57,252 bases of DNA, taken from Bacteroidaceae bacterium. Lineage in GTDB: Bacteria; Bacteroidota; Bacteroidia; Bacteroidales; Bacteroidaceae. Positions 6,285 through 34,089 of this stretch are shown here, one piece after another (the stretch's first letter is position 1; each line of letters opens with the position of its first letter). Below the pieces are notes generated by a model, which made no database searches, was not told where the DNA came from, and saw only the letters and a program-made list of their open reading frames with translations. A program made the translations under genes and the position numbers. The stretch covers positions 1 through 57,252 of the forward strand of contig JAZRFA010000099.1 of NCBI GenBank assembly GCA_045661085.1, read 5' to 3'.

Positions 6285-9200
6285 ATGAGAAAATTAACTT
6301 TATTTTTCACAACGTTATTCCTATCCGTAGGAATGGCGTGGGCGCAGACGGCAACGTTGGAGGTATCCACTAATGTGGAGAATCCAGAGTTCCTGTATGA
6401 GCTTAGGAATGCCAATAATGTATGGATGGCTTCAAATACTGCTCCTACTCAAAACAACATTGCGTCTTTCGCTTTCTTTGGCACTGACAATGCCAATTTT
6501 TATAAAATCTATAGCTTCGACAAAAAGCAGTGGGTGTCTTATGACAAGTCAAACGGCAGCGCTGACTGCAGAGATTTCGTAAAGTTTGCTGACTCACAAG
6601 ATGCCGCAAACGCATGGAAGATTACCGAAGTAACCCGTGATGGGAATGCTGTATACCAGATTCAGCCGCAAAATAATGACGGTTCGGTGTCTAATAGATA
6701 CATGAACTGGAATGGCGGCGTTGCTACTAATGGTTGGGCATATACCTATGACGACACCAAAACCGTTGGTCTTTGGAGCGACAACGCGTCTTCGGACAAA
6801 GGCTCTGCATGGATATTGAGCGAGAAAGTCGTATCTCTCTCAGATGCTGCCGAGTTTGTAAATGGCGACATTTACACATTCGAAACAACACGTGGTTGGA
6901 TGGGTGCAAAGGCTGATAACGACTATGTTGTTTCTACAGTATATGGTGGTAACAACATTCCTGCAGCTGATGTGAAGAGAACCAATCCCTACTTCCAGTG
7001 GACAGTGTATAAGTCGGATAACGACAAGTACTACCTCTACAACATCGGTAAGGGCCAGTTCATGGGCGTTGAGAGCAACAACAACACGGCTGTGCCTTTT
7101 GTTGCAACTCCTGCCGGATTGGGGTTGACCTTCAAAAAGTCAAGCAACACAAATTACCCCATCATGTTCTCAACAGACAACAAGGCTGTTGTGAACCACT
7201 CGGGCAATCATCAATATGGTCTTATCTCTTGGACCGATGGTTGGAATACCCTTAATGACGGTGGTAGCAACCACAAGGTTGTGAAGGTTGGTGTTCTCGA
7301 CGAGACTACTCTTTCTACAATAGTAGATCTTGTTGCTAATTATGAAGAAACTGCAATACTCAAAATGCCCGAGGCCGGTAAGTATTACCGCATCATGGCT
7401 GTTGAGGGTTGGAACGATGATGCACGCTATCTTGGTTCTAAGAACTCTACAGTAAATACCAGTCGTGCTGAATATGTTGCCAACGCTGATGCATACACCA
7501 TTTTCTATTTTGATGGCAACTATTTGAAGTCATACGCAACGGGCAACTATCTCGTGAGCAATAGCAACTTCCTTGGTTACAATGGCGTTCAGGCTACGGG
7601 CTCTAAGATTGGTTTCAAAGAAGACTCAAACGTAGCAGGTGTTTATAACATCAGCTTTAACGACGGTGGCCGTTGGTTGTATGTCCACCAGAACAACTAC
7701 ACCGATGCTGGTAGTAGCGCAGAAAATAAGAATGGTTACCGCTTCAACATCGAGGAGGTAACACAGCTTCCTGTAGCTCAAGGTGGTAACACAGTTTACT
7801 ATACCCTTACTGATGCTAAAGCTAATGTTAAGGCCGGCGAGACACTTACATTGTTTGTCGACACCGACGAGACAATAGAACTCCCAATTGGTGTAATCCT
7901 TGACAAGAACGGCCATACAGCCGATAACGTAACAGTTGCAACTCCTGTTGCCAAGGTTGGTGAGGCTGAGTACGCTTCTCTCGCTGCAGCAATTAAGGCT
8001 GCTTCAGCTGGTGCAACAATCACTTTTGTTGACAATATCAAAGAGAGCGTTACACTCAGCAAGAACGTAACCATCGACGGTGCAGGCAAGACTTACACCG
8101 GTACAATGTCTGCAAACAATGCTTTGACAGTTACTGTGCAGAATGTGCACTTTGTCAATGGTGGTTTTGCAAAGAATAATAGCGGTACAAGCGGCACTTA
8201 TACCATCAAGGATTGTACATTCGATGGCGAGGGTAAATATGCTTATCCTGTTTTGGCAAGTAATATTGGAACTCTCAATGTAGAGAACTGTACTGTCAAG
8301 GACTACCAGTATGGTTTCCTTTACGTTAAAAAACAATCAACAAAAGTTTCTGTGAAGAGCGTAACAGTTGAAAACTGTCCTAACTATGCCGTTTACTTCG
8401 CTTCAGGTGTAACTACTGCTACATTTGAGAATTTGACGGTGAAGAACTCTGGTAGTGGTTTCGTTATCAATAACGCTGCAAACAGAAGCCTCACCATCAA
8501 GAATTGCAAGATGGAGAATGTCACTACTGCCATCAACCACTTTAAAGGTACATCTGCCATCACAGCCAATGTTCAGGGTCAGAATAACTTTGGCGCAGCT
8601 GTGTTGAGCCAGTATGCCAAGTGTGTTCTTGCCGAAGATGCTACTTTGGCTGCTACAACAGCAGGCTTGAATGTTACTACTAACGTCGAGGGCAAAGAGG
8701 TGGTTTACCAGGGTGGTACATACTCAGTTGCAGTAAAGAGAGACCCCGCAGGTTCAGTCGCTTATCGTGCAGACGTTACCGACAAGGAGGACCGCGAGGG
8801 TATCGCTATCCTCTTGAAGGATCCTTATGCAAAGAAGTCTCTTGTAGTAAAGGTATACAATGGTGAGACATTGATGTTCACATGTACCCGTCGCGACATC
8901 GACGATGAGGGCAAGGTGATGTTCCCTGTAACTGCTAATACTACAGCCAACATCGTTCTCTCGGGTAAGGAATCAGGTTCTTGGATCAATGAAATTCACG
9001 TAGCTCCTACAGAACTCAATGTTCCCAACAGAGTTGAGATCTGGGCTGACGAAGTATTGGTTCAGAACTACACTCACGAGAGCGGTACCATTCTTGGTTC
9101 TAACCTCGAGAAGTACCTCGCTTTGGCATGCGTGAAGAAGTTCGACGCTAAGATTGGCAACGCAGGTTACGAAACATTGGCTGCTGCTATCGAGGATGCA

Positions 9201-12200: not shown

Positions 12201-15200
12201 ACTGTTAACGGTACAGTATTCAAAACTGCTAAGAAGGCTGCCGTTTTGGTAAGCTCTAAGGCCGGTGCACAGATTGCTGCTGCCAACGTGAACATCGAGA
12301 ATGTTGTAGAGGATCAGGTGAACTTCGTATGGGTTGATGAGGACTGGTCACAGTACTTTGCTGAAGTTGAGGTGACAGGTGCTACCAAGGCTCAGGAGGG
12401 TCTTGATAACCTCGTGGCTCAGCGCAGCAATGGCGCAAGCTACAAGACTCTCGCCGAGGCTATCGCTGCTGCTCAGGCAGGTGAGACAATTACCTTGATT
12501 GGCAACACAGAAGAGGACGTGACTGTAAGCAAGAACCTCATTATCGAGGGTGCAGGCATGCAGTACACTGGTACAATGACACTCAACAAAGTGAATGTGA
12601 CAGTACAGAACCTGAACTTCGTTAAGGGTCAGATCTCCAAGAGCAAGAACTACAATGGCGGCAATGTCACCATCGTGAACTGTAACTTCGACGGTCAGGG
12701 AATGAACAGCTATGCAGTGAACGTGGCACGTACAGGCAGTGTGGTAATTAAGGATGTAACAGCACAGAATTACGGTTATGGATTCCTGCAGCTGTCTCAC
12801 GCCAATAATGAGCTGTCAATCAAGGATGTTAAGGTAATGAGCACCAACTACGCACTGAAGATCGACTACTCTAACGGTGTGACCATCGATGGACTCAAAG
12901 TCGAGAATGTTGCGATTGCAGCTATCTACAACTCTAACTATGGCACCAAGACCTACACCATCACAAACAGTGACTTCAGCGGTGCAACTGAGGCCATCAA
13001 GATGTGGGAGCGCAACACAACGGTGTACAACACATTCGTGTTTGCTGGCGGCAACACACTTGGCGACGCTACATTGAGCACCAGCCAATATGCAATCTAC
13101 AAAGGCGTAGTGGCTGAGGTAGGCACCAAGAAGTTCCTTGATCTCCGTGCTGCATTCGACGCAGCACAGGATGGCGAGACAGTGAAGATGTTGGACAATG
13201 TAACATTGGATACCAAGACCCTTGCAACTCAGAACGACGGTTATGCAACTATCATCAACGTTGCTGGTAAGGCAGTGACTCTCGACCTCAATGGCAAGAA
13301 CATTACTGTTGACGCTGCGGCTGCCGACTTGGAGAACGCTGGCAAGATGTTGCTTGGTGTGTTCTCGGCCGACCTTGGTGGTCACCTGACATTGACCGAC
13401 AACTCTGACGCTAAGAACGGTGCCGTTACAGTAAACGTTAACGACGCTAATATTTACAGCGTGTTCGTAAGCGAAAGCTCACTGAGCGACAAGAGCAACA
13501 ACGGTAAGATTACTGTAAACGGTGGTAACTACACTACTGTAGGTAAGGTTTCTAACGCTATGTTCTTCACCGATGCAAACGAGGTAATCACCGTTAACGG
13601 TGGTAACTTCTACTGCGACGGCGCAACTACAACAGCTTCTTATCCTTGGATGTTCAATACCTATGGTAACAACGAACGTCACGTGATTGTTAACGGTGGT
13701 ACATTCAACGTTGACGTTAATCACCAGCACCGTCCGTTCGAGGTTAAGATTGCCGAGACTTCGGCTGTTAATCCTAACGGTGACGGAACTTGGACAGTTG
13801 TTCCTGCGGTAGCTTACATTACTGAGATGATTGGTTCTACTGTTAACGAGCCTGGTGACAATGCTCGCAAGGTGGGTTACGCTACATTGGCTGCAGCTGT
13901 TGAGGCTGCCGAGGCTGATGAGGTTGTAACACTGCTCGCTCACGTTACAGGCGCAGGCTTGGTAATCAACAAGGATGTAACTATCGACTTCAACGAGAAG
14001 ACCTATACCTTCAATGAAGGTGTTGGTTCTAATGGTACTGAGTCAAACGGCTTCCAGATTTTGAAGGGTAACAATGTTACCTTGCAGAATGGTACATTGG
14101 ACGTTGCTGCCGAGGCTGCCGACAAGTTCTACATCCTCGTTCAGAACTATGCTAACCTCACTGTAGAGGATATGACCCTCGATGGTACAAACCTCGACAA
14201 GTGGTCAGCTACCGACGGTGACTCTTATGTACTCTCTAACAACAGCGGTGAGGTCCTCATCACTGGCAACACCGACATCATTGCCAACAATGAGGGCGAC
14301 AAGGCATTTGCCTTCGACGCTTGCGACAAGACTGCCGCCGGCTACGAGCTTCCCAAGGTATATGTTCAGAAGACTGCTGATGATGATGTAATCACTATCA
14401 CTGGTAAGATTGAGCGCACAGGTAAGGCTGCCATCGCTATCTCAAGCGGTATCTTCACCACACCTATCGCTGATGACTGGTGTGCCGAGTACTATGTACC
14501 TGTACAGAATGCCGATGGTACATGGACAGTAGATTACCGTTACATCGACGAGAAGACTATCGTGGATGATGATTATACACCTTTTGAGAACTTGGTTGAG
14601 AAAACAGTTGGTGAATTGACTTACAAGCGTACAATTCCAACAGCAGATGTATGGCAATCAATCTACGTTCCGTTCGAGATTCCTGTTGAGGAGTTGACTA
14701 AGCGTGGTTACGATGTGGCATACTACCTTGATGTTCACTTTGAAGTAGTAAATGGCAAAATTAATATGGAAAAGGCACCTGAGGTTCATCTAATATTGAT
14801 TAATGAAGGCACGTTGAAAGCCAACTTCCCGTATGCTATAAGAGCTAAATCTTCAGAGAACGCGGATTTGGATCTTGAGCTTGTATTTGAGAATGCTAAA
14901 TTGTACAGCACAGCAGCTGAGAATATGAATTCAGTCGAGTCTGGTTCTACTGTAAATCGTTTCGTATTTGCAGGTACATATACAAGATCTATTCCCTCTG
15001 TACTGACTGGTAACGATACCACTCCTTGTTATGCTGTTACCAAGAAAGGCGAGTTCAAAAAGATGGGTGTAACTGCCGGTTTGCCTCCTTTCCGTGTATA
15101 CATGTCTATTATAGCTAAGGATGGCTCACCATTCATTTCTAGCAGTGCTCATGCAGAGTCGATTCGTATGCGCGTCATTGGTGAGGAAAGCGAGGATGAG

Positions 15201-15335: not shown

Positions 15336-15356
15336 ACAAAGATTTGCATTAACCCT

Positions 15357-15384
15357 CCCACGGGTGGTGAAAGCCACTCGTGGG
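15357..15384 (+). promoter_or_regulatory. stem-loop 22 nt after the giant gene 1 stop, without a U-tract
   Basis: CCCACGgGTGG-tgaaag-CCACtCGTGGG forms 10 bp with two single-nt bulges. It is followed by AATAATAAAAAC, not a T-run. It could be a processing or stabilising structure, or a partial terminator. Confidence 0.45.
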
Positions 15385-15406
15385 AATAATAAAAACAAGA
15401 AAGACT

Positions 15407-15583
15407 ATGGTAAAAAAAGAGTATGTAAAGCCTGAAATGGTAGTGGAGGAGTTTATGGCAGAGATCGCCTTTTTGGAAGCAAGTACAGGCGGATCAACTA
15501 TTCCTGGTGGTAGTACTGACGAAGGAGGAGATGGTGAATTCTCCAACGAGCGTCGCGGCGGCTGGGGCAACCTTTGGGATTAA
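15407..15583 (+). CDS. 58-aa acidic Gly-rich small protein of unknown function
   Basis: ATG 15407 gives MVKKEYVKPEMVVEEFMAEIAFLEASTGGSTIPGGSTDEGGDGEFSNERRGGWGNLWD. The track start at 15380 is a GTG inside the hairpin. The ORF lies between the hairpin at 15357-15384 and the strong terminator at 15623-15657. It has no signal peptide, no Cys and a net charge of about -7. Confidence 0.5.
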   Translation: MVKKEYVKPEMVVEEFMAEIAFLEASTGGSTIPGGSTDEGGDGEFSNERRGGWGNLWD

Positions 15584-15622
15584 AACAAGCAAGTAGAGTT
15601 TACAGCTCTATGATCTATAGTA

Positions 15623-15657
15623 ATGAGGGCACGGAGATTTCCGTGCCCTCATTTTTG
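15623..15657 (+). terminator. intrinsic terminator
   Basis: ATGAGGGCACGG-agattt-CCGTGCCCTCAT forms a perfect 12-bp stem followed by TTTTT. Confidence 0.85.
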
Positions 15658-15721
15658 CAATAGCACAGGAGTTACCCAACATCCCAAACACACCCTATCA
15701 TTACCAAAAACACATTAGCGG

Positions 15722-15729
15722 TAATTTTG
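15722..15729 (+). promoter_or_regulatory. candidate -7 box TAatTTTG upstream of giant gene 2
   Basis: Exact TAnnTTTG match, but there is no TTTG at -33. It would give a ~400-nt leader, similar in length to gene 1. Confidence 0.3.
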
Positions 15730-15974
15730 TAACAGACCCCGAGAAGACTGCGATCTCCTGCCTCCAATCTTGAGTGTTAAAAATTCAAGTTTATTTGTTT
15801 ATTTTTCAAAAAGTTTATACCTTAGCTCGTTGTATATTATCATTGGTCTACTCCAATCAGGGGATAGTCTATATCTGCATGAATATCAATTTATTAGACA
15901 TTCGCGCAAATATAGACCGATATCTTCGTTATTGGGAGGGGGATTGTAATATACGGCTGACAACTGGATAAAAT

Positions 15975-16136
15975 TAGTATAAAACGTTAAAAAACATGAG
16001 TATTAACAATTAAAAATCAACATTACGAAACAGAAAGGAAAGACAGACAAAACACAGGAAACAACATGAGCACCTTGTATAAGGTATTCGAAAGAAAAAA
16101 ACTAACATTTTATTTATTAACTAAATTATTTCATTT
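15975..16136 (+). promoter_or_regulatory. conserved 5' leader of giant gene 2 (paralogous to 6140-6284)
   Basis: Same ordered blocks as the gene 1 leader. The stem-loop ACCTT-gtat-AAGGT (16072-16085) is centred ~59 nt before the ATG. Confidence 0.5.
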
Positions 16137-19100: not shown

Positions 19101-22100
19101 AAATCTGTTCTTGCAGCAAAGAATTATATCAAGAACGGTAAGAACGTTACATATAACTTCACAAACAATTCTCGCGGTACAACTGGTAGCCTCCGCATCG
19201 ATGGTGTACTCAACATCGACGCTACAAGTTCTGTGGTAACTACTTCACAGCAGAACAACGTACAGGGTGCTGTTGACGAGCACGGCGGTATCAACGGTAC
19301 TGTAAATGTTGCTGGTAACTTGACTATCGGTTCTAATGCCAAGACACAGCTCGAGGTACTCGGTGGTACAGTAAACGTTAACGAGGGTGCTACTCTTGCT
19401 CTTGGCAACAATACAATGACACTGGATGCAGCTTCTGCAATGCAGAGTGCCGGTAACATCAGCGGTGCCATCACAGCTGCCGACGGTGCTAACGTTGCCA
19501 TTACCGGTGGTACATATACACAGGATGTAAGCAACTGGTGTGCTGATGGCTTCATGACACAGCAGAACGCAGACGGCTCATTCGGTATCGCAAAGGCTGT
19601 TGCCAAGGTTGGTGACAAGAAGTATGCGACACTTGAGGAGGCATTCAAGGCTGCTACAAGCGGTTGTACAATCGAAATTGTATCAGACGTGACTGTTGAC
19701 TATAACTGGGATGCACGTAACACTGGTGGTAAGTTCACAGTTCCTGTGACAATTAACGGTAACGACAAGACAATCAAGTTTACTGCTTCTGTAAATGACA
19801 ACAACTATCAGGCTCCTTTCCGTTTCGAGGCTGATGCAACTGTTAAGAACCTTATCGTTGATATGAGCGAGGTAACAGATAGTCGTTTCCGCGCAATATC
19901 TTCAAAGGGTAACTTGACTGTTGACGGCTGTAAGTTCATCGGTAAGGATGAGACTCTCAACTGTAGAGCAATCATCTTTGGTGAGGGTGCAGGTGCAAAT
20001 GTTGGTAACCTCGCTATCGCTATCACAAACAGTGAGTTCATCAACTGGAAGCGTGGTATCACTGACAACGAGAACGCTCAGGATGTGAAGACTGTAACTA
20101 TCACAGGCAACAAATTGACCGATGCTGGTGTTGGTGTAAGTGCTAAGGAGAAGGTTACATTCACAGGCAACACTGTTGAAGGTGCTTATGTAGACATCAA
20201 GTCTTACACTACAGGCAACAAGCTCGCTGTAACTGCTACAGGCAACACACTCGCAGCAAATACCGATGCTGCTTATAACGTCATCGATGCAGGTGGTGTT
20301 GTTAATGCCGAAGGCTTTAAGGTTGTTGCCAAGGGTGACAACTTCAACGGTTACACAGGTGCTGACGGTATCTGGGGTGAGACTTGGGGTAACGCTAAGG
20401 AGAGCTTCGTTATTAAGGTGCTCGATGCCAATGGCGACGTAATGGGTACAACAAGTCTGAACAACATTGGCGGTATCATCAACGGTAATGTAAACGTTTC
20501 TTGGAACCTCAAGTTCAACGCTGCTGCAAACACCGACGAGTACTGGACAATGGAGTGGACAACAGCTCCCTCTATCAGCAACATGCCTGCCAAGGTTGAA
20601 CTTTGGGTTGACGGCACACGTGTTAGCGGTGGTGATGTTGTTCTCAACGGTCCCGATGACTTGAACAAGATCGTTGCTGCTGTAACCGACGCTGATGGTA
20701 AGATTATCTCTTGCCACACTTCTGTTGCCAACGCAGCCGCTACCAATGCTACAAACATCGCTCTGTTGCGCAATACAACTGAGGAGATTATTCTGCCTGC
20801 AGGTGTGAAGCTCAACGCTAACGGTTTCACTGCAGCTAACGTAAAAACTGCTGTTGCTGTTATCGGTACACAGAAGTTCGCTTCCCTCCAGGCTGCTGTC
20901 AATGCAGTTAAGGATGGTGGGACCATCACATTGGTTGACAATGTAACAGGTAATGTAACTCTTACCGAGAAGGTAGGTCTCCACTACACACTCGATGGTG
21001 CTGGCAAGCAGTTCAAGGGTTCAATCTCAGTTAACTCTTTGAGCGATACTAACGACAACCGCCGTATCACAATCAAGGATATCAAGTTTGTTGATACTGC
21101 TGATGCTAAAGTTGACTTCATCTCTTCAGTTAATACAAACCACTATCCACGTCTCACAATCGAGGGCTGTACTTTCACCGGTTCAGGTAACGATGGCGAC
21201 GTTGCTGTTCGCTTGAAGTCAAGCCACAGCGTGGTTATCAAGGATTGTACAGGTACAGGCCTGCACTCATTCTTGCAGAACACAAGCGGCTGGAACCTCA
21301 CAATTGAGAACGTTAAGGTAACAGACTCTAAGGGTGCATTCGCTCTTGGTACTGTACAGGGTGTAACTGTTAAGGGTTCTACTATCGATGTTGCTACCTA
21401 CGGTATCCGCATCGATGCTGACACTTACAACAACAACGCCGTTATCGAAAGCAACGAGGTAACTGCATTCATCCCCGTTGTAGTTCGCAAGGTTAATGCA
21501 GAAAGCAACGTAACATTCACAGGTGAGAATATATTCACTGCTGAGAACACAGACGAAAAGTGGATGGTTATCGGTACTACAGAGTACGAGGCTGGTGTGG
21601 CACTCCCTGCTGAGGTTGCTACAGGTAATGTTGTAGTAGCACTCAACAACACGAACCTCACTTACGACGGCATCCACGGTGCAGGTCTTGCAGGTAAGGG
21701 TACAGCCGAGGCTCCATACCTTATTAATAATGTTGCCGAGCTCGAAATCTTCCGCAACAGCGTTAACGCAGGTTCTACTAAGTACAACAAAGATGGTCTT
21801 TGTGTAGCTTTGAACGCTGACATCGACATGGCTGGTAATGACTGGAGCGTGAACATCGGTGATGACTGCGCTAACACATTCGACGGTATTTTCGATGGTA
21901 CGAACCATACCATCAAGAACCTTAAATCAGTAGAGACAGCTCAGAAGGCTGATGGCTACATCTGTACAGGTCTCTTCGGCGCTATCGGTGGTAATGCTGT
22001 AGTAAAGAACTTCACTATTGAGAACGTAACTATTAATACAGGTGACTTCACAGGTAACAACGTTGCCGCTGTGGTAGGTTTCGCTTACAACGCTAAGGGC

Positions 22101-25100
22101 TCTATTGAAAACGTGAAGGTGACCGGTGACATCAACATCAATGCTAAGAATGCAGTTGGTGTAGGTGCAATCCTGGGTTATGACTATTACAGCCCTGAAT
22201 TAGTTGTTAAGAACTGTGAAGTAAAGGGTAACTCTGGTTCTGCTATCGTAGGTTTGTCTTACGTTGGTGGTGCTGTAGGTTATGCTTCTAACAAGATTCA
22301 GTTGCTTAGCAATAGTGTCGAGAACGTGAGCATTACAGCCAACAACGCTGCTGCCGGTGGTGTTGCAGGTATAATGCTTGCAGGAGGTTCTGCGGCTGAT
22401 AACGCTGTTAAGGATGTTGTTCTTGCATCAAATCACGCTAACTGGAAAAACGCTGTCGGTGTGGTTGCAGGTACAATCACTTCAGGTAAGGTGACTATTG
22501 CCAACACCACAATAGAGAATGTCAATACGGATGCTGTTGCCGGTGCTGTACATGCTGACAAGCCTACAACTCCTGTTGCTAAGGTAGAGGCACGCATTGG
22601 TGATGCTTACTATACTACACTTGATGCAGCACTTGCTGCCGATGGTGATGAGGTAGAGCTTCTTGTTCCTGTAACAGTCGCTAAGGATGAGACACGTGTT
22701 CTCGACCTCAAAGGCAAGACAGTAAGCCACTCTAAGGCTTGCGCAGCTTCTTATGAGATGATTAAGAACTTGGGTAACCTCACCATCAAGAACGGTACAC
22801 TCAGCTTCACTGATACAAGCGCTGGTGATCGTTCATTCGGTTGGGGCTCATACACCATCAACAACTATGGTACACTCGTAGTTGAGGAAGGCGCTACAAT
22901 CCAGCACCTCGGAGCTCAGGAATTCGCCACACATATGATAGCTGCTATCCAGCAGGCTAAGGGCTCTACCACAATCAACGGTGGTGTTATTTCAACTCCC
23001 AACTATCGCTCAGTACGCATCAATGGCGGCGCACTCGCTATCAATGGTGGTGAGTTCGACGGTCAGGTATGGTTGCAGCCTAACCAGGGTGACGTGACTA
23101 TCGCTGTAGATGGCGGTACATTCGGTCCTAATGGTCGCGACGGCTCATCAATCTTCATGACCAATGTAGGTGAGAACAACACTGTAACTTCTGCTTCAAT
23201 TACTGGCGGTACCTTCACCACCAAGATTGGTTGCACTGACCCTGCTGCACTTGCAGGCATCATCACCGGCGGTAAGTTCACTGAAGCTGCTATGACTGCT
23301 ACAAATGGTGCTCTTATTGGTGATGGATTCACATTTGATAAGAATGCCGAAAACGGCTACTATGCTGTTGTTGCAGGTCTCGATGGTGACGGAACAGAGG
23401 CTGCTCCTTATATGATTACTTCTGTTAAGGAACTCGAACTCTTCCGCGAGAGCGTAAACAAGGGCGAAACCAAGTACAACGCTCCTGGCGTTTGGGTAGC
23501 TCTTGGTGCTGACATCGACCTTGCAAATGCAGAATGGACAGTTGGTATCGGTGACGGTCACAACTACTCATTCGACGGTAACTTCGATGGTAAGAACCAT
23601 ACTATCAAGAACCTCAAAATCAAGCCTTATGCTGATGCTGACAACTACCTCTGCGGTGGTCTCTTCGGTTACACATACGGTGGTGTGACTATCAAGAACC
23701 TCGTAATTGAGAATGCAGCAGTTAACTTTACTGGTGCTGAAACAGGCAAGGACTACCACTGCGTGGGTATCCTCGTTGGCTTTGCTAACAACAACGGTGG
23801 TAAGTTGAACGTCGACAATGTGACCGTGAAGGGTGACATCAAGGTTTACGCTCCACAGACATTCGGTGTAGGTGCTATCGTTGGTTATAGCTACCGTGCT
23901 ATGGGTTCTATCACTAACACTAAGGTACTTGCAAACGCAGGTTCTTACATCAAGGGTGAGCGCTTTGTAGGTGGTATCACTGGTTACAGCGATGCCAATG
24001 CAATCATAGAGAACTGTACCGTAGAAAACCTCGCTATCTCTGGTGCTAACGGTGTGGCCGGTATCGCAGGTCTCGCATTGGACGGTAACAAGATTACCAA
24101 CTGTACAGTCACAAATGTAACAGTAAGCGGTAACAAGAATGTTGCTTACATCGTTGGCGAACTTGGTTCTGGCGACGGTGGTAACGTATTGGTTAACAAC
24201 TGTAATGCTCCCCAGCCTTGGGTAGGTGGTAGCTATGGAACAGGCGAATCATTCGTTGCTACTATCGGTACTAAGTACTACACCTCTATTGCTAAGGCTA
24301 TTGAGGTTGCTAAGGAAACTGACGTGATCACATTGATCATCGACATTACCGCTACAGAGCCTATCGCTATTCCTACAGGCAAGAAGGTAACTCTTGACCT
24401 CAACGGCAAGACAATCACTGGTACTGACAATACTACAAAGAGCTACGGCTTGATCAACATCAACCCTGGTGCAGAGTTGACAATCAACGACACGGCTGGT
24501 AACGGTGCCATCACTTTGACAGCTACTAACAACCGCGGTTGGGATGCTTACTCTTCTGTAATCTCTAACCAGCGTGGTAAGCTCACTGTTAACGGTGGTA
24601 CCATCGAGCACCTTGGCGGTACAGACATGGCTTATGCTATCGACAACCTCACAAACGGTAAGGGTACATATGCCGAGACCATCATCAACGGTGGTACAAT
24701 GAAGTCTACCTACCGTGCAGTACGTCAGTTCTTGAACGGCACAGAGGCTCAGAACATCCTCACCGTAAACGGCGGTACAATCGAAGGTGCCAACAAGTCC
24801 ATCTGGATGCAGAATGCCAATGCAAATGCTAACCCTGGTGACTTGACCGTTGCTGAGACTGCTGAGATTAAGGGTGATGTATATGTATCAGGTGCTGGTG
24901 CTGCTAACTTCCCCGTTGAAATCTCTGTTGCCAATGCTGCATTGAAGGATGGTGCAACCGTTCTTCCTTCTAATGTACATGAGTCATTTGCTATTGCCAA
25001 CAATAATGGCGTTTGGGGTATCACCTCTTCTGTAGCTTCTGCAAACGGTGTGGGTTATGCTTCATTCCTTGAGGCTATCGACGCTGCTAAGAGTGGCGAG

Positions 25101-28100
25101 ACAGTAACTCTCCTTGCTGACGTGACATTGGATACCAAGACCCTCGCAACTCAGGACGACGGCTATGCTGTCCTTGTAAATGTTAAGGGTAAGGCAATCA
25201 CTCTCGACCTCAATGGTAAGAACGTTACTGTCGACGCTGCAGCTGCCGACTTGGCAAGCGCTAAGAGTAAGATGCTCCTCGGTGTGTTCTCTGCTGACCT
25301 TGGCGGTCACTTGACATTGACTGACAACAGTGACGCGAAGAACGGTGCTGTTACAGTAAACCTTAACGATGCTGCGGTTTACAGCGTGTTCGTAAGCGAA
25401 AGCGCACAGAAAGACAAGAGCAACAGCGGTAAGATTACTGTTGACGGTGGTAACTACACTACTGTTGGTAAGGTTTCTAACGCAATGTTCTTCACCGATG
25501 CTAACGAGGTAATCACTGTCAACGGTGGTAACTTCCATTGCGATCAGGTTTCTAACACAGCTAACTATCCTTGGATGTTCAATACACTTGGCAACAACGA
25601 ACTTCACGTGATTGTCAATGGTGGTACATTCAATATTGACATCAACCACCAGCACCGTCCATTCGAGGTTCTGGTTCCTGAGACTTTGGCTGTGAGGGCT
25701 AACGATAACGGTACTTGGACAGTTGTTGAGGCTGAGGCTTACATCACTGAAAAGCTCGGTTCTACAGTTAACGAGGCCGGCGAATGGGGCCACAACGTAG
25801 GTTACGCTACTCTCGCTGAGGCTATCGCAGCTGTTAACGAGCTTGGCAACAAGGTTTCTATGGCCAAGGATGTTGAGTTGACAGAGACAGTTGTTGTTCC
25901 TGCCGACAAGACAGTTGTTCTCGACCTCAATGGTAAGACAGTTTCTATGAACGATGCTTCAGGCGCTGCTGCTGCATTGCTCAAGAACAATGGAAACTTG
26001 ACTATCATGGATGGTACTGAGGCTAAGGCTGGTAAGCTCAGCTTCAAGACAACAACTCCTAGCGCTGCTAACGCATACGCAAGCAACACTATCAGCAACT
26101 ATGGTGTGATCACCATCGAAAGCGGTAATGTTGAGAACCTCTCTGTAGGTGGTGGCGCATGCTACGCTCTCGACAACTACGCAGGTAGCACAGCTACTAT
26201 CAACGGTGGTAAGCTCACTGCTGAGAAGACAGCTGTACGCATCTTCAACTGGACAAACGGTGAAGAGGCTAAGGCTACTATCAACATGAACGGTGGTGAG
26301 ATCTACAGCAAGAACGGTTATGGTATCAACGTTAACTCTGGTAACGCTCCGTTCGTAGCACTCAACATCGCTGGCGGTACTATCACTACAGACTATGCTG
26401 ACTACAAGCTTGCAGTATATGTTGTGAACAAGAATAGTGCTGAAAACCTCACAATCAATGTGACTGGCGGTACATTCAACGGTATCTTCGCACTCAACGG
26501 CGTAACTGCTCAGACTATGAAGCAGGGTGCTGTGGCTGTAAGCGGTGGTACATTCGAGGGTGTTACTTGCTACGATGATCCTGCATACGGCTTCGTAAGC
26601 GGCGGTACATTCAAGTCTGCTGTTGATGCTAAGGCTGTTGCTACAGGCTTCATCTGCAAGGACAACGGTGACGGCACATTCGGTGTTATCGTCGATCCTA
26701 AGCATGGCATGGTGGCTCAGATTATCAGAAATGACTACTACGCCGAGAACCAGTACTTCGCTACTATCAACGACGCTGTTCAGGCTGCACAGAGCGGTGA
26801 GACTGTAACCTTGATTGCCGATGTTGAGACATCTGCTGCAGGTTATGCTACAATCACTGACAACTATGCGGTAATCGTGGCTGTTAAGGAGAAGAATATT
26901 ACTCTCGACCTCAACGGTAAGAGCGTGACTGTTACTCCTACTGCTGAGGAGTTGGCTAATGCTGAGGGCAAGATGCTGATGTCTGTATTCGGTATGGATA
27001 CAAACGGTAAGCTCACGCTCACAGGTAACGGTTCTGTAAAGGTTAACGCTAACGGCGCTAATGTTTACTCACTTGTTGCTGCTTACGGCGAGGGTTCTGC
27101 TGTAGTAATCGAAAACGGTAACTACGAGGCCGATGCTGTGAATGCAAACGGTTCACTCATATACGCTCAGCAGGCTGAATGCATCGCTGTAATGGGTGGT
27201 ACATTCAACCTTGGTAACTTGGGCACCGGTGCTAACGGTTCACCATGGATTTTCAACACCAAGGGTCAGAACTATACAGGTGTTAAGGTTGTTGGCGGTA
27301 CATATCCTACCGATATCAACCACCAGTTCTGGGCTAACGAGGTACTCGTACCTGAGGCATACGCTCTCGAGGACAATGGCGATGGCACATGGACTGTTGT
27401 TCCTGCTGTTGCTTACACCAATGAGAAGGCTACTTCACGCGGTGCTTCATGGCGTCACGTTGGTTATGCTTCACTTGAGGACGCTATCGCTGCTACAGGT
27501 AAGTATAACTGCCAGGGCAACACAGTAACAATGATTAAGGACATTACTCTTGAGCCTATCACTGTTGCTAACGGTGTTAAGGTTGCTATCGACCTGAACG
27601 GTAAGACAATCAGCGGTACCGACAAGGGCACTGCAAGCTATGGTTTGATTACCAACAAGGGTGACTTGACAATCGACGGTACCGGTGCTATCACATTGGA
27701 AGCTACTCAGGACCGCGGTTGGGGTGCTTACTCTTCAGTAATCTCTAACCAGGTAGGCGGTAAGCTCACTGTGAACGGTGGTACAATCCAGCACCTCGGT
27801 GGTACATCAATGGCTTATGCTATCGATAACCTCACCAACGGTAAGGATACTTATGCCGAGACCATCATCAACGGTGGTGAAATCAAGTCAACATACCGTC
27901 CTATCCGTATGTTCTTGAACGGCGTTGAGGCTCAGAACATCCTCACTGTTAACGCTGGTACTATCGAGGGTACAGGTGGTAACAAGGCTGCTATCTGGAT
28001 GCAGACTGCAGGCGACGTTGCTCACTCTGGTACTTTGTACGTTGGTGCAGATGCTGTAATCAAGAACAATGTATATCTTGATGCTGATAACCTCAAGAAC

Positions 28101-28955
28101 GTTCGCGAATATCCTGTTGAGGCTTTCATTGCTAAGGCTGCTCTTGCTGAGGGTATGACTGTTCTTGCTGACGCAATTCCTGCTGAAACTGCCGCACTCG
28201 TTGAGTACGACACATTCTGGCAGGTTGAGCAGAAGAACCTTGCCGAGCTTACTATCGAGGATGCTTGCGAGGAGTACATCAACAAGATTGAGAAGAATGT
28301 TGAAGTGTTGACTTACGAGCGTTACTTCAATGACACTGAGTGGCAGACTATCGTATTGCCGTTCGATGTTCCTGTTGCAAACTTGATGGATCAGTTCGAG
28401 GTAGCTTACATCTACAACGCTTCTTATAAGGGCAAGCAGGCTACTATCGACTATGTAGTTATTGAGGATTCTGAATTTGTTCTTGCTGCTAACTATCCTT
28501 ACATGATTCGTGCTAAGGAGACAGGCTGGAACAACATCGTTGTTGAGAATGCCAAGTTGATGCCTACTGAGGTTGAGATACTTGACTGTTCTTCTATCTT
28601 CGAGAAGTTCAGCTTCATCGGTAGCTATGCTACAGTTGATACAGATGAACTCGATGCTAAGTACGGTTACTTCAACTTGACTTCAGGTACTTGGAGCAAG
28701 AAGGGTACTGTTAACCCCTTCCGCTTCTACATGCAGATTGAGTTGCGTAACGGTAAGGACTTCGAGTATCCTGCTTCTAATGAGTCAATCCGTATGCGTC
28801 GCGTAGACGAGAACGGCAATGCCGACACTACTGGCATCGACGGTGTTGACGCTGAGAATGCAGGTGACTTCATCTTCGACCTCCATGGACGTCGCGTCCT
28901 CGAGCCTCTGAAGGGTGGTCTCTACATCATCAACGGTAAGAAGGTTATCTTCTAA
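16137..28955 (+). CDS. giant secreted modular beta-helix/GLUG-like repeat protein with T9SS C-terminal sorting domain (4272 aa)
   Basis: Uninterrupted 12819-nt ORF with signal peptide MKLKQFIFALAVMLSGFAISVNAQ. About eleven cap-plus-beta-helix modules are present (AKIGTTTYGTLAEAVKAAAAGDEIVLLKN, AKVGDKKYATLEEAFKAATSGCTIEIVSD and others). Two GLUG-like regions follow, then a pre-CTD domain homologous to gene 1. The C-terminus ...DFIFDLHGRRVLEPLKGGLYIINGKKVIF is a T9SS CTD. Confidence 0.92.
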   Translation: MKLKQFIFALAVMLSGFAISVNAQEAKIGTTTYGTLAEAVKAAAAGDEIVLLKNVTLTGGYADDPTAGLRIEKALTINGNKKTIDCGTFKDGIRVYINSNSKADVEFNNVTIKNDNPYGRCIDMRTGKIALEVKGGAKLIAHGVNSQPLTVGGSAATYRVRVSNATIDAGETGYGIISFVRVTNNIEFSSSVKISGLAALYLKEGANNTTVTMGNGTYTGTNLNSAASGMFGTVVIEGKNNTITVNHEKAVIKAVAGNDANQAVQAAFLLKEGATGNKIQVTNANAQVLTEGAQAQWATVATDATNNVLINKGQTVNFAVEYNGYQFMDANEVFSKFVPQEKEATIKLLSDVALDETWTVAAGQNITLDLNGKTASMAYTKDATANHAMISNKGNLTIVDSSNGGKLSYTYAGANLGTTYAANTITSEPGSVLTVKNGIIENLTYDHATIAYAIDGRTNGGAGDVTVNIEGGVITSKRQAVRIFANSTTKTGTLNISNGDFTGRVIVQNASANANKAVLNITGGTFNANEYKSDVLYLGGSNSATIDINASVSGGTFNGEITQTNVKGFISGGTFSQPVAEAFCAKGYAPIELGNGTYGVQEGQIVALIGSAKYFSLADALAAAKDGETISLQWRDDYTPIAMNGSLYGKSVTITGTATVDWSKGFLFVGRGGVGNAKLTFDNANLTSASNQATYGIHVSGRENETADKYDGTLVIKESTIELDYLINKGAMTLDKSSLTVKNGFDLNGRPASETENGEDANATLALANNSKLVVNNHNGMGIGREGKGELTVDASSTFEHTQDFIVRAKGTMDVKGTLVSNGKKLTNNGEVKFTATKLTAATIEGTGTTRFYNDVNFYGANSITTGINGTPFHLVVNEGANLLISRFTLGYDRNITVNGTIADASTFNPAGQTPSLKFNSTSGVSVGGTGTGNITAKNAYVEFGNSSWKSAQGTYDWNFENCYVSATSFTNAAGPGADAAKWDVTFNKSVLAAKNYIKNGKNVTYNFTNNSRGTTGSLRIDGVLNIDATSSVVTTSQQNNVQGAVDEHGGINGTVNVAGNLTIGSNAKTQLEVLGGTVNVNEGATLALGNNTMTLDAASAMQSAGNISGAITAADGANVAITGGTYTQDVSNWCADGFMTQQNADGSFGIAKAVAKVGDKKYATLEEAFKAATSGCTIEIVSDVTVDYNWDARNTGGKFTVPVTINGNDKTIKFTASVNDNNYQAPFRFEADATVKNLIVDMSEVTDSRFRAISSKGNLTVDGCKFIGKDETLNCRAIIFGEGAGANVGNLAIAITNSEFINWKRGITDNENAQDVKTVTITGNKLTDAGVGVSAKEKVTFTGNTVEGAYVDIKSYTTGNKLAVTATGNTLAANTDAAYNVIDAGGVVNAEGFKVVAKGDNFNGYTGADGIWGETWGNAKESFVIKVLDANGDVMGTTSLNNIGGIINGNVNVSWNLKFNAAANTDEYWTMEWTTAPSISNMPAKVELWVDGTRVSGGDVVLNGPDDLNKIVAAVTDADGKIISCHTSVANAAATNATNIALLRNTTEEIILPAGVKLNANGFTAANVKTAVAVIGTQKFASLQAAVNAVKDGGTITLVDNVTGNVTLTEKVGLHYTLDGAGKQFKGSISVNSLSDTNDNRRITIKDIKFVDTADAKVDFISSVNTNHYPRLTIEGCTFTGSGNDGDVAVRLKSSHSVVIKDCTGTGLHSFLQNTSGWNLTIENVKVTDSKGAFALGTVQGVTVKGSTIDVATYGIRIDADTYNNNAVIESNEVTAFIPVVVRKVNAESNVTFTGENIFTAENTDEKWMVIGTTEYEAGVALPAEVATGNVVVALNNTNLTYDGIHGAGLAGKGTAEAPYLINNVAELEIFRNSVNAGSTKYNKDGLCVALNADIDMAGNDWSVNIGDDCANTFDGIFDGTNHTIKNLKSVETAQKADGYICTGLFGAIGGNAVVKNFTIENVTINTGDFTGNNVAAVVGFAYNAKGSIENVKVTGDININAKNAVGVGAILGYDYYSPELVVKNCEVKGNSGSAIVGLSYVGGAVGYASNKIQLLSNSVENVSITANNAAAGGVAGIMLAGGSAADNAVKDVVLASNHANWKNAVGVVAGTITSGKVTIANTTIENVNTDAVAGAVHADKPTTPVAKVEARIGDAYYTTLDAALAADGDEVELLVPVTVAKDETRVLDLKGKTVSHSKACAASYEMIKNLGNLTIKNGTLSFTDTSAGDRSFGWGSYTINNYGTLVVEEGATIQHLGAQEFATHMIAAIQQAKGSTTINGGVISTPNYRSVRINGGALAINGGEFDGQVWLQPNQGDVTIAVDGGTFGPNGRDGSSIFMTNVGENNTVTSASITGGTFTTKIGCTDPAALAGIITGGKFTEAAMTATNGALIGDGFTFDKNAENGYYAVVAGLDGDGTEAAPYMITSVKELELFRESVNKGETKYNAPGVWVALGADIDLANAEWTVGIGDGHNYSFDGNFDGKNHTIKNLKIKPYADADNYLCGGLFGYTYGGVTIKNLVIENAAVNFTGAETGKDYHCVGILVGFANNNGGKLNVDNVTVKGDIKVYAPQTFGVGAIVGYSYRAMGSITNTKVLANAGSYIKGERFVGGITGYSDANAIIENCTVENLAISGANGVAGIAGLALDGNKITNCTVTNVTVSGNKNVAYIVGELGSGDGGNVLVNNCNAPQPWVGGSYGTGESFVATIGTKYYTSIAKAIEVAKETDVITLIIDITATEPIAIPTGKKVTLDLNGKTITGTDNTTKSYGLININPGAELTINDTAGNGAITLTATNNRGWDAYSSVISNQRGKLTVNGGTIEHLGGTDMAYAIDNLTNGKGTYAETIINGGTMKSTYRAVRQFLNGTEAQNILTVNGGTIEGANKSIWMQNANANANPGDLTVAETAEIKGDVYVSGAGAANFPVEISVANAALKDGATVLPSNVHESFAIANNNGVWGITSSVASANGVGYASFLEAIDAAKSGETVTLLADVTLDTKTLATQDDGYAVLVNVKGKAITLDLNGKNVTVDAAAADLASAKSKMLLGVFSADLGGHLTLTDNSDAKNGAVTVNLNDAAVYSVFVSESAQKDKSNSGKITVDGGNYTTVGKVSNAMFFTDANEVITVNGGNFHCDQVSNTANYPWMFNTLGNNELHVIVNGGTFNIDINHQHRPFEVLVPETLAVRANDNGTWTVVEAEAYITEKLGSTVNEAGEWGHNVGYATLAEAIAAVNELGNKVSMAKDVELTETVVVPADKTVVLDLNGKTVSMNDASGAAAALLKNNGNLTIMDGTEAKAGKLSFKTTTPSAANAYASNTISNYGVITIESGNVENLSVGGGACYALDNYAGSTATINGGKLTAEKTAVRIFNWTNGEEAKATINMNGGEIYSKNGYGINVNSGNAPFVALNIAGGTITTDYADYKLAVYVVNKNSAENLTINVTGGTFNGIFALNGVTAQTMKQGAVAVSGGTFEGVTCYDDPAYGFVSGGTFKSAVDAKAVATGFICKDNGDGTFGVIVDPKHGMVAQIIRNDYYAENQYFATINDAVQAAQSGETVTLIADVETSAAGYATITDNYAVIVAVKEKNITLDLNGKSVTVTPTAEELANAEGKMLMSVFGMDTNGKLTLTGNGSVKVNANGANVYSLVAAYGEGSAVVIENGNYEADAVNANGSLIYAQQAECIAVMGGTFNLGNLGTGANGSPWIFNTKGQNYTGVKVVGGTYPTDINHQFWANEVLVPEAYALEDNGDGTWTVVPAVAYTNEKATSRGASWRHVGYASLEDAIAATGKYNCQGNTVTMIKDITLEPITVANGVKVAIDLNGKTISGTDKGTASYGLITNKGDLTIDGTGAITLEATQDRGWGAYSSVISNQVGGKLTVNGGTIQHLGGTSMAYAIDNLTNGKDTYAETIINGGEIKSTYRPIRMFLNGVEAQNILTVNAGTIEGTGGNKAAIWMQTAGDVAHSGTLYVGADAVIKNNVYLDADNLKNVREYPVEAFIAKAALAEGMTVLADAIPAETAALVEYDTFWQVEQKNLAELTIEDACEEYINKIEKNVEVLTYERYFNDTEWQTIVLPFDVPVANLMDQFEVAYIYNASYKGKQATIDYVVIEDSEFVLAANYPYMIRAKETGWNNIVVENAKLMPTEVEILDCSSIFEKFSFIGSYATVDTDELDAKYGYFNLTSGTWSKKGTVNPFRFYMQIELRNGKDFEYPASNESIRMRRVDENGNADTTGIDGVDAENAGDFIFDLHGRRVLEPLKGGLYIINGKKVIF
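21678..22560 (+). repeat. GLUG-like region 1 inside giant gene 2 (approximate)
   Basis: GKGTAEAPYLINNVAELEIFRNSVNAG...TGLFGAIGG...VGGAVGYASN...AGGVAGIML shows the periodic G-hydrophobic-x-G motifs that I associate with the GLUG motif family. Confidence 0.6.
23374..24250 (+). repeat. GLUG-like region 2, paralogous to 21678-22560 (approximate)
   Basis: GDGTEAAPYMITSVKELELFRESVNKG...GGLFGYTYGG...VGGITGYSD...VAGIAGLAL is colinear with region 1. Confidence 0.6.
24251..25030 (+). repeat. intragenic cassette, paralogous to 27453-28200 (approximate)
   Basis: VTLDLNGKTITGTDNTTKSYGLIN...NNRGWDAYSSVISNQRGKLTVNGGTIEHLGGTDMAYAIDNLTNGKGTYAETIINGG compares with AIDLNGKTISGTDKGTASYGLIT...QDRGWGAYSSVISNQVGGKLTVNGGTIQHLGGTSMAYAIDNLTNGKDTYAETIINGG. 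Confidence 0.8.
25031..25790 (+). repeat. cassette shared with giant gene 1 (13110-13866)
   Basis: See 13110-13866. Here it reads GYASFLEAIDAAKSGETVTLLADVTLDTKTLATQDDGYA...NHQHRPFEV. Confidence 0.85.
26719..27452 (+). repeat. diverged third copy of the 13110/25031 cassette
   Basis: YFATINDAVQAAQSGETVTLIADVETSAAGYATITDNYA...KMLMSVFGMDTNGKLTLTGNG...NHQFWANEV keeps the same order of motifs at lower identity. Confidence 0.65.
27453..28200 (+). repeat. intragenic cassette, paralogous to 24251-25030
   Basis: See 24251-25030. Confidence 0.8.
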
Positions 28956-29018: not shown

Positions 29019-29052
29019 GAGGGGTGCGGTAATTACCGCACCCCTCGCTTTT
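29019..29052 (+). terminator. intrinsic terminator of giant gene 2
   Basis: GAGGGGTGCGGT-aatt-ACCGCACCCCTC forms a perfect 12-bp stem followed by GCTTTT. A second hairpin, TTGGcTCAGCGAT...ATCGCTGAaCCAA, lies at 28978-29008. Confidence 0.85.
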
Positions 29053-34085: not shown

Positions 34086-34089
34086 GTCG

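Follow-up and report, generated by a model that had tools for sequence, protein, structure and literature searches.

What do two giant genes lying side by side on a bacterial contig encode, and how could such products reach the cell surface? The question is raised by a stretch of 57,252 nucleotides (nt) from a Bacteroidaceae bacterium (contig JAZRFA010000099.1, assembly GCA_045661085.1), called the window below, in which gene 1 (6285..15335, plus strand, 3016 amino acids (aa)) and gene 2 (16137..28955, plus strand, 4272 aa) take up 38% of the sequence. A first-pass annotation of the window had described two intact giant open reading frames (ORFs) of exactly these sizes, and both were reproduced here. 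It had interpreted their products as adhesin-like type IX secretion system (T9SS) cargo, built of beta-helix and GLUG-like modules and evolving by cassette duplication and gene conversion. Based on profile searches, structure prediction and comparison with related sequences, we propose, with a probability of about 0.6, that gene 1 and gene 2 are old paralogues encoding giant T9SS-exported cell-surface fibres made of beta-helices, and that they are the cargo of an island in a Prevotella-like bacterium of the rumen or gut. This island, 23.6 kb long (about 5655-29258), lies in the 3' end of cysE and carries both genes.

Capped beta-helix modules and the head of gene 1

Both proteins begin with a Sec-type signal peptide, as can be read from the sequence: MRKLTLFFTTLFLSVGMAWA/Q in gene 1 (aa 1-20, ending AWA/Q) and MKLKQFIFALAVMLSGFAISVNA/Q in gene 2 (aa 1-23, ending VNA/Q), where the slash marks the cleavage site; a lipobox cysteine is absent after either of them. 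Signal peptides had been noted for both genes on the first pass, and their presence supports the description of the products as surface or secreted, adhesin-like proteins. Behind the signal peptide, gene 1 consists of a putative lectin-like head (aa ~21-554), capped beta-helix modules (aa 555-2764), a domain that precedes the C-terminal domain (pre-CTD domain), a linker and a short C-terminal domain (CTD). Gene 2 consists of capped modules, two of them with GLUG regions, followed by a pre-CTD domain (aa 4030-4232) and a short CTD (aa 4233-4272).

The modules are opened by an alanine-rich cap, the strict motif of which occurs 8 times in gene 1 and 9 times in gene 2, with about two degenerate occurrences in each. 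The cap counts correspond to about 9-10 modules in gene 1 and about 11 in gene 2, in good agreement with the 9 and 11 or so that had been estimated before. Each module spans about 230-320 aa and is predicted to form a right-handed beta-helix of about 6-7 coils, with the helical alanine-rich cap at its start. With Pfam, which was run on the whole proteins and on 20 pieces of the two, PF13229 (Beta_helix) exceeds its cut-off in gene 1 (aa 680-798; 34.1-34.7 bits, cut-off 25.9), while the other modules give sub-threshold matches only, to DUF4957, Pectate_lyase_5 ("adhesive domain"), Pectate_lyase_4 and NosD; many homologues of the modules carry PF13229 as well.

The structure prediction points in the same direction. 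An AlphaFold2 (AF2) model of three gene 1 modules (aa 2045-2764), for which 35 homologues and paralogous modules were aligned, reached a predicted local distance difference test score (pLDDT) of 92.3 and a predicted template modelling score of 0.80. It is composed of short strands, and every module begins with a single helix; the alanine-rich cap is therefore a helical cap in this model. When the model was compared with the PDB by Foldseek, the top matches were all right-handed parallel beta-helices, namely PL6 lyases, pertactin, Ag43, HxuA and tailspikes. The beta-helix modules proposed on the first pass have thus come through both the profile and the structure checks. The proposed GLUG-like modules are likewise found, in gene 2, where PF07581 (GLUG; cut-off 20.5 bits) matches 23352..24254 (plus strand, aa 2406-2706) in three stretches with 33.1 bits. 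An earlier region, 21651..22586 (plus strand, aa 1839-2150), is 46% identical to it at the aa level and scores 18.4 bits, slightly below the cut-off. No GLUG match was obtained by Pfam in gene 1.

The head of gene 1 (6348..7946, plus strand, aa 22-554) has 205 homologues, most of which are proteins of 600-800 aa from Bacteroidaceae metagenome-assembled genomes (MAGs), many of them with a short CTD, and the consensus of these homologues ends in a tail of the same kind as those of gene 1 and gene 2. Among 34 aligned homologues, RicinB_lectin_2 occurs in 8 and Laminin_G_3 in 7. The head itself matches RicinB_lectin_2 only below threshold (E 0.028); searches of it revealed no Pfam family of its own, no internal repeats and no similarity to the neighbouring gene with RicinB and LamG domains, and its profile matched a single entry among the PDB sequences, in the tail region of 4KCA. 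From the company that its homologues keep, the head is probably lectin-like.

Then, could the modules be enzymes rather than parts of an adhesin? In that case gene 1 and gene 2 would encode multi-catalytic, polysaccharide-degrading arrays of PL3-, PL6- or GH28-like beta-helices, secreted by the T9SS. The best fold matches of a single module are indeed PL3 pectate lyases, 1EE6 and 3T9G (Foldseek probability 1.00 and 0.97, template modelling (TM) score 0.51 and 0.45, respectively), but the identity to PL3 is only 9-14%. Pectate_lyase_5 (22.4 bits, cut-off 24.3) and Pectate_lyase_4 (18 bits, cut-off 24) are the best matches of enzyme type and remain sub-threshold, and no catalytic family, lyase or hydrolase, reaches its cut-off in either protein, whole or in pieces, which agrees with the earlier statement that no enzymatic domain is recognizable. 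Enzymes would also suit a rumen or gut habitat, where T9SS exports carbohydrate-active enzymes (PMC8810776), and a rumen arabinanase (4KCA) ends in the same tail. However, the CBM89 beta-helix from a capybara-gut Bacteroidaceae MAG, which has a related tail too, is a non-catalytic binding module (PMC8810776), and 9-11 catalytic copies per chain would be unusual. An array of enzymes is consequently regarded as unlikely.

The C-terminal region and the route of export

The two proteins end almost identically, as the first-pass annotation had observed: 22 of the last 25 aa are the same, the 3' ends of the genes (15246-15335 and 28866-28955) are 87.8% identical over 90 nt, and the preceding pre-CTD domains of about 200 aa are homologous (34-37% aa identity). 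When the C-terminal 252 aa of gene 1 were modelled with AF2 from a 46-sequence alignment (pLDDT 87.9), three parts could be distinguished: residues 1-200 form a confidently predicted domain rich in beta-strands, residues 205-222 (pLDDT < 50) a disordered linker, and the rest a tail with short strands. The first part is the pre-CTD domain (14577..15176, plus strand, aa 2765-2964; pLDDT mostly >90). It has no match in Pfam or NCBIfam and no fold match in the PDB (Foldseek, best E 0.07, TM < 0.16); in a viral library, Foldseek of the C-terminal model returned an entry that carries this domain and is probably a bacterial contaminant, as well as a weak match to a "hemin binding protein".

The tail is the part that bears on export. 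Recently, 48 short CTDs were described in Prevotella intermedia (Ye et al., 2025, Open Biol, PMC11969387), with lengths of 40-51 and 43-55 aa. They have a PT/GI cleavage motif with a conserved Ile, located in the flexible linker that joins the folded domain to the CTD. Three motifs follow, namely B (Y..G and a basic residue), D (GxY-I) and E (K and one more basic residue), with few residues separating B and D. A 3-strand sheet is predicted for them, corresponding to strands 3, 6 and 7 in the long CTD. Mass spectrometry (MS) established that the cargo is cleaved and glycosylated at the C-terminus, and 1-3 pectin-lyase domains are common in it (PMC11969387).

Compared with the text of that paper, rather than with its sequences, both tails have the features of the short class in length (42 and 40 aa), in TT/GI in a linker and in motifs B, D and E. 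In gene 1 the short T9SS-type CTD (15207..15332, plus strand) is formed by the 42 aa after the predicted cut at TT/GI, TT/GIKFYEFDNEQASDYIYDLHGRRVLEPQKGGIYIVNGKKVIF, with the motifs IYDLHGRRV-LEPQKG-GIYI-VNG-KKV, and TT/GI falls within the linker of pLDDT < 50. In gene 2 it is TT/GIDGVDAENAGDFIFDLHGRRVLEPLKGGLYIINGKKVIF, of 40 aa, with the motifs IFDLHGRRV-LEPLKG-GLYI-ING-KKV. According to DSSP on the AF2 model, the gene 1 tail has strands at 242-245 and 248-251 and two 2-residue bridges at 226-233 (pLDDT 71-85), which are compatible with a 3-strand sheet, albeit not a clean one. A profile of the gene 1 C-terminal region matched, among the PDB sequences, only the extreme C-termini of 4KCA (E 1.8e-7), an arabinanase from a rumen metagenome, and 7JVI (E 0.017), that is, CapCBM89 from a capybara-gut Bacteroidaceae MAG.

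The same picture emerges from related tails in Prevotellaceae and other Bacteroidales genomes. T[GAS][IV] was found in 84 of 119, mostly 39-48 aa from the end (median 42), and regular expressions for motifs B, D and E matched in this order in 89 of 121, with a median of 5 residues from B to D. The final residue is K in 90 of 121 homologues, and F, R or Y in the others. LRR_5, Flg_new and lectin passengers are also found joined to this C-terminal cassette, and one relative (P0110) combines a gene 1 type module with a canonical PF18962 CTD.

Because the motifs and the length of the tail fit the short-CTD class (PMC11969387), T9SS export with PorU cleavage and surface attachment appears to be the best-supported mechanism. 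By analogy with the P. intermedia proteins (PMC11969387), the tail would be a short T9SS signal that binds PorV, the protein would cross the outer membrane via the T9SS, and PorU would cut at T/GI and join the new C-terminus to a surface glycolipid. The fibre would then stay attached by its C-terminal end, and the string of beta-helices would project tens of nanometres from the cell with the lectin-like head at the distal end. Its role may be adhesion or glycan binding (plant fibre, host mucus or other cells), not catalysis, which is the less firmly drawn part of the scheme.

Several points weigh against this explanation. The first-pass annotation had expected a T9SS CTD of the TIGR04183 type, and this expectation failed: TIGR04183 and PF18962 match neither the whole proteins nor their C-terminal 243-252 aa, and together with TIGR04131-type models they give no match even at E<=10 to the last 110 aa of gene 1, gene 2 and the 1451-aa neighbour or to the 73-86-aa ends of five homologues. 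The T9SS assignment of the earlier annotation thus stands in part, without the canonical CTD and with the features of the short class, by motif and literature rather than by hidden Markov model (HMM). The seven-strand (3+4) immunoglobulin-like sandwich of about 70-80 aa is not predicted, as AF2 shows short strands in the last 27 residues, and none of the CTD structures in the PDB was matched by the C-terminal model of gene 1 (Foldseek). T9SS component genes were not found in the 57,252 nt of the window, the only stretch looked at. The Foldseek E-values of the three-module model are weak (at least 1.3e-3), since the matches cover no more than a single module. An adhesin or glycan-binding role is suggested, weakly, by the fold, by the lectin-like proteins to which the head is related and by the lack of enzyme signatures. 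With regard to the island, no integrase or recombinase lies between its repeats, where only gene 1, a 58-aa ORF and gene 2 fit, and the contig is derived from a metagenome, so that assembly chimerism is possible in principle, although it would need two matching joins within a repeat of only 85% identity.

The failure of the CTD models, the three short strands predicted in place of a 7-strand sandwich, and a few matches on contigs binned as Clostridiales or Christensenella could also be taken to mean that the tail is no T9SS signal, and that it instead sorts or anchors the proteins in another way, or is a binding module, with the proteins leaving the cell by another route. However, the tail equals, in motifs and length, short CTDs whose cleavage and glycosylation were demonstrated by MS. 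Its family is overwhelmingly from Prevotellaceae and other Bacteroidales, it is strictly C-terminal and follows a disordered linker, a related passenger has a canonical CTD (P0110), and no barrel is predicted. A route other than the T9SS is therefore considered improbable. The type V autotransporter was rejected as a specific candidate, since the 252-aa C-terminal model has no barrel match in the PDB and the final residue, being K, F, R or Y, varies in a manner that argues against an outer-membrane beta-barrel signal.

An island in the 3' end of cysE

Where did the two giant genes come from? The cysE gene (4890..5756) is intact at 288 aa thanks to an attL-like repeat (5655..5758, plus strand), which is 84.6% identical to an attR-like repeat (29259..29362, plus strand) at the other end of the island. 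The direct repeat is the last 104 nt of cysE. All six close relatives available (L081-L086) lack the island; their flanks are 96-98% identical to those of the window at the nt level, and in them the RicinB/LamG gene comes immediately after cysE. At its 3' end, cysE of these relatives matches the downstream copy (96-97%) and not the copy that now completes cysE. Accordingly, the upstream repeat is a surrogate 3' end borne by the island, and the downstream repeat the displaced original end, just as is classically seen where an element integrates at the 3' end of a gene and provides a substitute end.

The cysE 3' end also looks like a recurrent insertion hotspot. Among CysE proteins that are at least 90% identical (P0211-P0225), variation is far greater in the last 11 residues than elsewhere, with the variants VAPGAK, VPPGTK, VPPGAK, VPSGAK, VPAGAK and VPPYAK, and two more distant relatives (L087 and L088) have entirely different genes 3' of cysE.

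Near the right end of the island, gene 2 is followed by an intrinsic-terminator-like hairpin (29019..29046, plus strand; 12-pair stem with 9 GC pairs, then a T-run) and by a remnant of an IS66-family insertion sequence (IS) end (29051..29161, plus strand). This 110-nt IS66 end with a strong hairpin recurs in L005 (12212-12386; 94.6% identity over 12212-12323), a MAG labelled Phocaeicola sp., and in L092 (148-318), where it lies directly 5' of TnpB_IS66 and DDE_Tnp_IS66 genes. The window copy has a dead tnpA start (ATG AAT TAA), and L005 likewise holds only a remnant. An att arm, a promoter and a small RNA were considered for this hairpin and discarded, with nothing found in Rfam and an IS66 end recognizable from L092. 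It is a matter of speculation that the missing integrase was lost by IS-mediated deletion.

The codon usage fits an acquired segment. The GC content at the third codon position (GC3) is 0.49 in gene 1 and 0.48 in gene 2, with T at this position (T3) in 0.35 and 0.38 of codons, against GC3 of 0.70-0.77 and T3 of 0.14-0.19 in cysE, the 1451-aa gene and the DUF3987 gene; these counts agree with the preference for T-ending versus C/G-ending codons that had been noticed by eye. Might the bias reflect very high expression of native genes instead of a foreign origin? G-ending codons are avoided in gene 1 and gene 2 (G3 0.16-0.18) as in the well-expressed housekeeping gene fabF of the window (G3 0.14), and, because low G3 is common to all three, high expression may add to the bias. 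However, fabF keeps C3 at 0.42 and T3 at 0.24, well away from the T3 values of the giant genes, and the segment is an insertion without counterpart in six relatives, bounded by a diverged copy of its target. The two causes are not mutually exclusive, and expression as the sole cause has little to recommend it.

Cassettes shared within and between the genes

The modules were cut at the alanine-rich caps and compared all against all at the aa level, in parallel with a nucleotide self-comparison of the window, and all the cassette pairs named in the first-pass annotation were recovered. The closest pair is cassette X (gene 1: 13110..13853, plus strand, aa 2276-2523), the cassette best shared with gene 2: 13156-13893 and 25078-25818 are 80.7% identical at the nt level, and aa 2276-2523 and aa 2966-3214 are 77.6% identical (E 7.5e-130). 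In gene 2, X belongs to the cassette series Y-X-Z-X'-Y' (24255..28223, plus strand, aa 2707-4029). Within this series, Y and Y' (24330-24884 and 27528-28076) share 75% nt identity and, over aa 2707-2965 and 3782-4029, 60.5% aa identity, while X' (aa 3533-3781) is a diverged third copy with 46% aa identity to X. The two GLUG regions are 69% identical at the nt level (21680-21926 and 23372-23618) and 46% at the aa level over 257 aa. Within gene 1, 9849-10111 and 13893-14164 share 68.8% nt identity, and the corresponding aa 1176-1394 and 2524-2764 share 53%. The remaining modules have many weaker links. Low complexity was ruled out as the source of these similarities by E-values down to 1e-130 and by codon-level alignments.

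Did the two genes exchange cassettes recently, as the idea of gene conversion between tandem paralogues implies? The X pair has a synonymous divergence (dS) of 0.55 and a dN/dS ratio of 0.31, and identical runs in it reach 26 nt at most; among the other pairs dS ranges from 0.8 to above 2. Moreover, the gene 1 copy of X is nearer to proteins of other organisms (81-87% aa identity to P0076, P0077 and P0078, with P0076 at 87%) than to the gene 2 copy, and P0076 and P0077 keep the gene 1 order X-C-preCTD. Similarly, cassette Y of gene 2 is nearer to the foreign proteins P0120 and P0111 than to Y'. Given this divergence, the short identical runs and the closer foreign relatives of X, the proposed conversion between gene 1 and gene 2 is not supported as a recent or active process, whereas a family history of cassette duplication and shuffling is. 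On these comparisons, the two genes are old paralogues that have separate orthologues.

The orthologue of gene 2 in L005, which is collinear with it over the last 1600 aa and 74% identical at the aa level, was used together with protein fragments to compare the module order. The order of the last five modules is kept, and one extra module stands between Y and X. Along the series Y-X-Z-X'-Y', the per-module dS between gene 2 and L005 is 0.69, 0.72, 0.21, 0.36 and 0.25, followed by further values of 0.58 and 1.2, and the aa identity ranges from 55% to 97%. This pattern supports, as far as sequence comparison goes, a module-scale mosaicism or recombination between lineages over long times. In every comparison made (cassette pairs and gene 2 against L005), dN/dS is 0.07-0.43, and by this measure the modules of both genes are under purifying selection.

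In L005 (7-11800) the gene 2 type gene comes first, then the gene 1 type gene and a small ORF, which is a circular permutation of the order in the window; the two genes are separated by 106 nt, and the gene 1 type protein has 2006 aa instead of 3016. There is no cysE in the 4 kb downstream of this pair, and the upstream flank of L005 lies outside the data. Module number and order, by which the earlier annotation proposed to compare strains, are therefore conserved in the last five modules and variable in one extra module, in gene order and in the size of the gene 1 type protein. The strain-level surface variation that it predicted is also borne out in part: it takes the form of presence or absence of the island, absent in all six close relatives. 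The sources of diversity would be gain and loss of whole genes, insertion and deletion of modules, and long-term recombination of modules between lineages, and not a continuing conversion between gene 1 and its neighbour gene 2.

An active system, in which gene 1 and gene 2 frequently convert each other or swap cassettes and so create surface variants within a strain, could draw on the tandem arrangement with cassettes common within and between the genes and on the mosaic synonymous divergence from the L005 orthologue, but is very improbable in view of the dS of 0.55 and 26-nt run of even the closest pair (others 0.8 to above 2), the foreign proteins that are nearer to X and Y than their partners in the window, the module order kept in L005 (last five of gene 2) and in P0076/P0077 (X-C-preCTD), and the lack of inverted repeats of the invertible-promoter type conserved between the upstream regions of the two genes.

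The upstream regions (5860-6284 for gene 1 and 15700-16136 for gene 2) do have conserved blocks in common. One, CAGGGGATnGnCTATnTCTG, lies about 250-275 nt 5' of the ATG in both genes, and others, TACGAAACAGAnAG..AAGACAGAC, about 90-110 nt 5' of it. A duplicated regulatory region or 5' leader is the likely explanation. Between the genes, a small ORF of 58 aa (MVKKEYVKPEMVVEEF...; 15407..15583, plus strand) lies 3' of gene 1 and is followed by a perfect 14-bp hairpin with a T-run at 15622-15653. A small ORF of 35 aa (MILKDYVSPEVEIIEV..., at 11839-11946 in L005) likewise lies 3' of the gene 1 type gene. No family match was found for either small ORF.

The wider family

In a cluster look-up, gene 1 is a singleton and gene 2 clusters only with a 155-aa fragment, and an index of contigs has no exact match to gene 1. 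The C-terminal unit, by comparison, is widespread. Among 1.84 billion cluster representatives (clusters at 50% identity), a profile that spans both the pre-CTD domain and the tail hit 38,129 clusters at E<=1e-3 and 1,628 at E<=1e-30, and all the best 150 listed matches are C-terminal. Among these best 150, 139 proteins were newly fetched, of which 29 have at least 2000 aa and 17 at least 3000 aa, with a maximum of 4814 aa. Many of the giant relatives have a signal peptide and head of gene 1 type or gene 2 type, and most have several caps. Different stretches of gene 1 and gene 2 find their best matches in different giant relatives, and the architecture of the family, judged from these alignments, is clearly a shuffled set of modules. 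The matches to the tail family come overwhelmingly from Prevotellaceae and other Bacteroidales. The relatives belong to rumen and gut MAGs of Bacteroidaceae or Prevotella-like bacteria, so that the gut commensal assumed on the first pass is approximately right.

The capped modules are not confined to this family: proteins that carry SLH (PF00395), Flg_new or dockerin domains contain them too (P0081, P0096, P0109, P0129-P0195). The modules of an Oscillospiraceae protein are 52% identical to a module of gene 1, which suggests module exchange across phyla. Both giant proteins are poor in D-[ST]-[AILVMT], the O-glycosylation sequon of Bacteroidota, with 3 occurrences in each against about 12 and 16 predicted from composition; the sequon appears clearly depleted, by a crude expectation that ignores neighbour effects.

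A bolder proposal goes beyond the island and the fibre. The pair may form a self-contained, transferable surface-fibre cassette, that is, an integrase-less island that moved among Prevotella-like genomes, with a two-part C-terminal export unit and with modules from a pool that spans phyla and extends, at up to 52% identity, to Firmicutes-type proteins with SLH or dockerin anchors. The export unit, consisting of the pre-CTD domain (about 200 aa) and the short CTD, would be an undefined one that is missed by T9SS models in tens of thousands of clusters. Taken as a whole, the proposal is tentative and should be regarded as possible rather than likely.

Comparison with known systems

Short-CTD T9SS cargo with pectin-lyase folds has already been published, and gene 1 and gene 2 are giants of that kind. 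Like the P. intermedia cargo (PMC11969387), they have an N-terminal signal peptide, a C-terminal signal in the range of 40-55 aa with T/GI and motifs B, D and E, and passengers of the pectin-lyase fold, which is common among that cargo; the gene 1 tail model is compatible with the 3-strand sheet predicted there. Unlike it, they have 9-11 beta-helix domains instead of 1-3, as well as GLUG regions, a lectin-like head and lengths of 3016 and 4272 aa. They also have a distinct pre-CTD domain of about 200 aa, and they belong to an uncultured rumen or gut lineage. Giant short-CTD relatives with beta-helices are apparently undescribed in the literature searched, though they are numerous in sequence databases.

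The canonical type A T9SS CTD (TIGR04183/PF18962; RgpB, PorZ and HBP35) shares with the two tails the location at the extreme C-terminus and motifs B, D and E in the same order, and is the one used by P0110. It differs in having about 70-80 aa rather than about 40, a 3+4 sandwich rather than three predicted strands, and HMMs that do not match here. CapCBM89 (PDB 7JVI, PMC8810776) is a non-catalytic, glycan-binding right-handed beta-helix of a secreted gut Bacteroidaceae protein, and the deposited chain has a related tail, VYNLQGQRV...GIIITNGKKI. It is, however, a single 14-turn helix fused to a GH10 enzyme (xylanase), glycan binding by the modules of gene 1 and gene 2 is putative, and no sequence similarity was detected between its helix and these modules.

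Pertactin, Ag43, HxuA and TpsA proteins of the FHA type are adhesins with long right-handed beta-helix passengers, and they are among the top fold matches. In contrast to the many short capped helices and the T9SS-type tail of gene 1 and gene 2, for which no barrel is predicted, they have one continuous helix and type V export, with a beta-barrel or a TpsB partner. SprB and RemA of Flavobacterium are giant repetitive cell-surface proteins exported by the T9SS. SprB differs from gene 1 and gene 2 in its type B CTD, its repeats and its role in gliding, and no sequence relation of the two genes to SprB or RemA was seen.

Neighbouring genes

Downstream of the island, the 1451-aa neighbour (29479-33834), with RicinB_lectin_2 and Laminin_G_3 domains, is also present in relatives without the island. 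It ends in IYNVSGIRITTMQKGLNILHMSDGTTVKVLVK, which is missed by the standard CTD models and looks like the GxN subtype of short CTD (PMC11969387). At 34089-36841, a tRNA-Met gene (34089-34163, minus strand) adjoins an HU-HIG DNA-binding gene and the DUF3987 gene, an arrangement typical of a mobile-element edge; these genes are present in L081 and absent in L087 and L088. Further on, a minus-strand cluster of glycosyltransferase genes (43242-47989), which comprises one for a GT10 alpha-1,3-fucosyltransferase, three of GT2 type and LicD, may relate to the synthesis of surface glycans.

Implications

Gene 1 and gene 2 do not overturn the current understanding. The points that go beyond the ordinary are the large size of the gap in the annotation of short CTDs, the uncharacterised pre-CTD domain, the presence or absence of a whole island, and modules in common with proteins of Gram-positive type. 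If the proposed explanation is right, short T9SS signals are not peculiar to P. intermedia. In addition, counts of T9SS cargo for Prevotellaceae of the rumen and gut are probably too low, because the standard models miss the tail in all 10 C-terminal ends tested. The widespread pre-CTD domain of about 200 aa is a candidate for a new family and a target for structure determination. The module pool shared with SLH- and dockerin-anchored proteins would hint at an exchange of parts of surface fibres across phyla in the rumen. Finally, strains whose flanking genes share 97-98% identity could gain or lose whole giant surface proteins in one piece, as an island, and such gain and loss would provide a concrete route to strain-level differences in adhesion.

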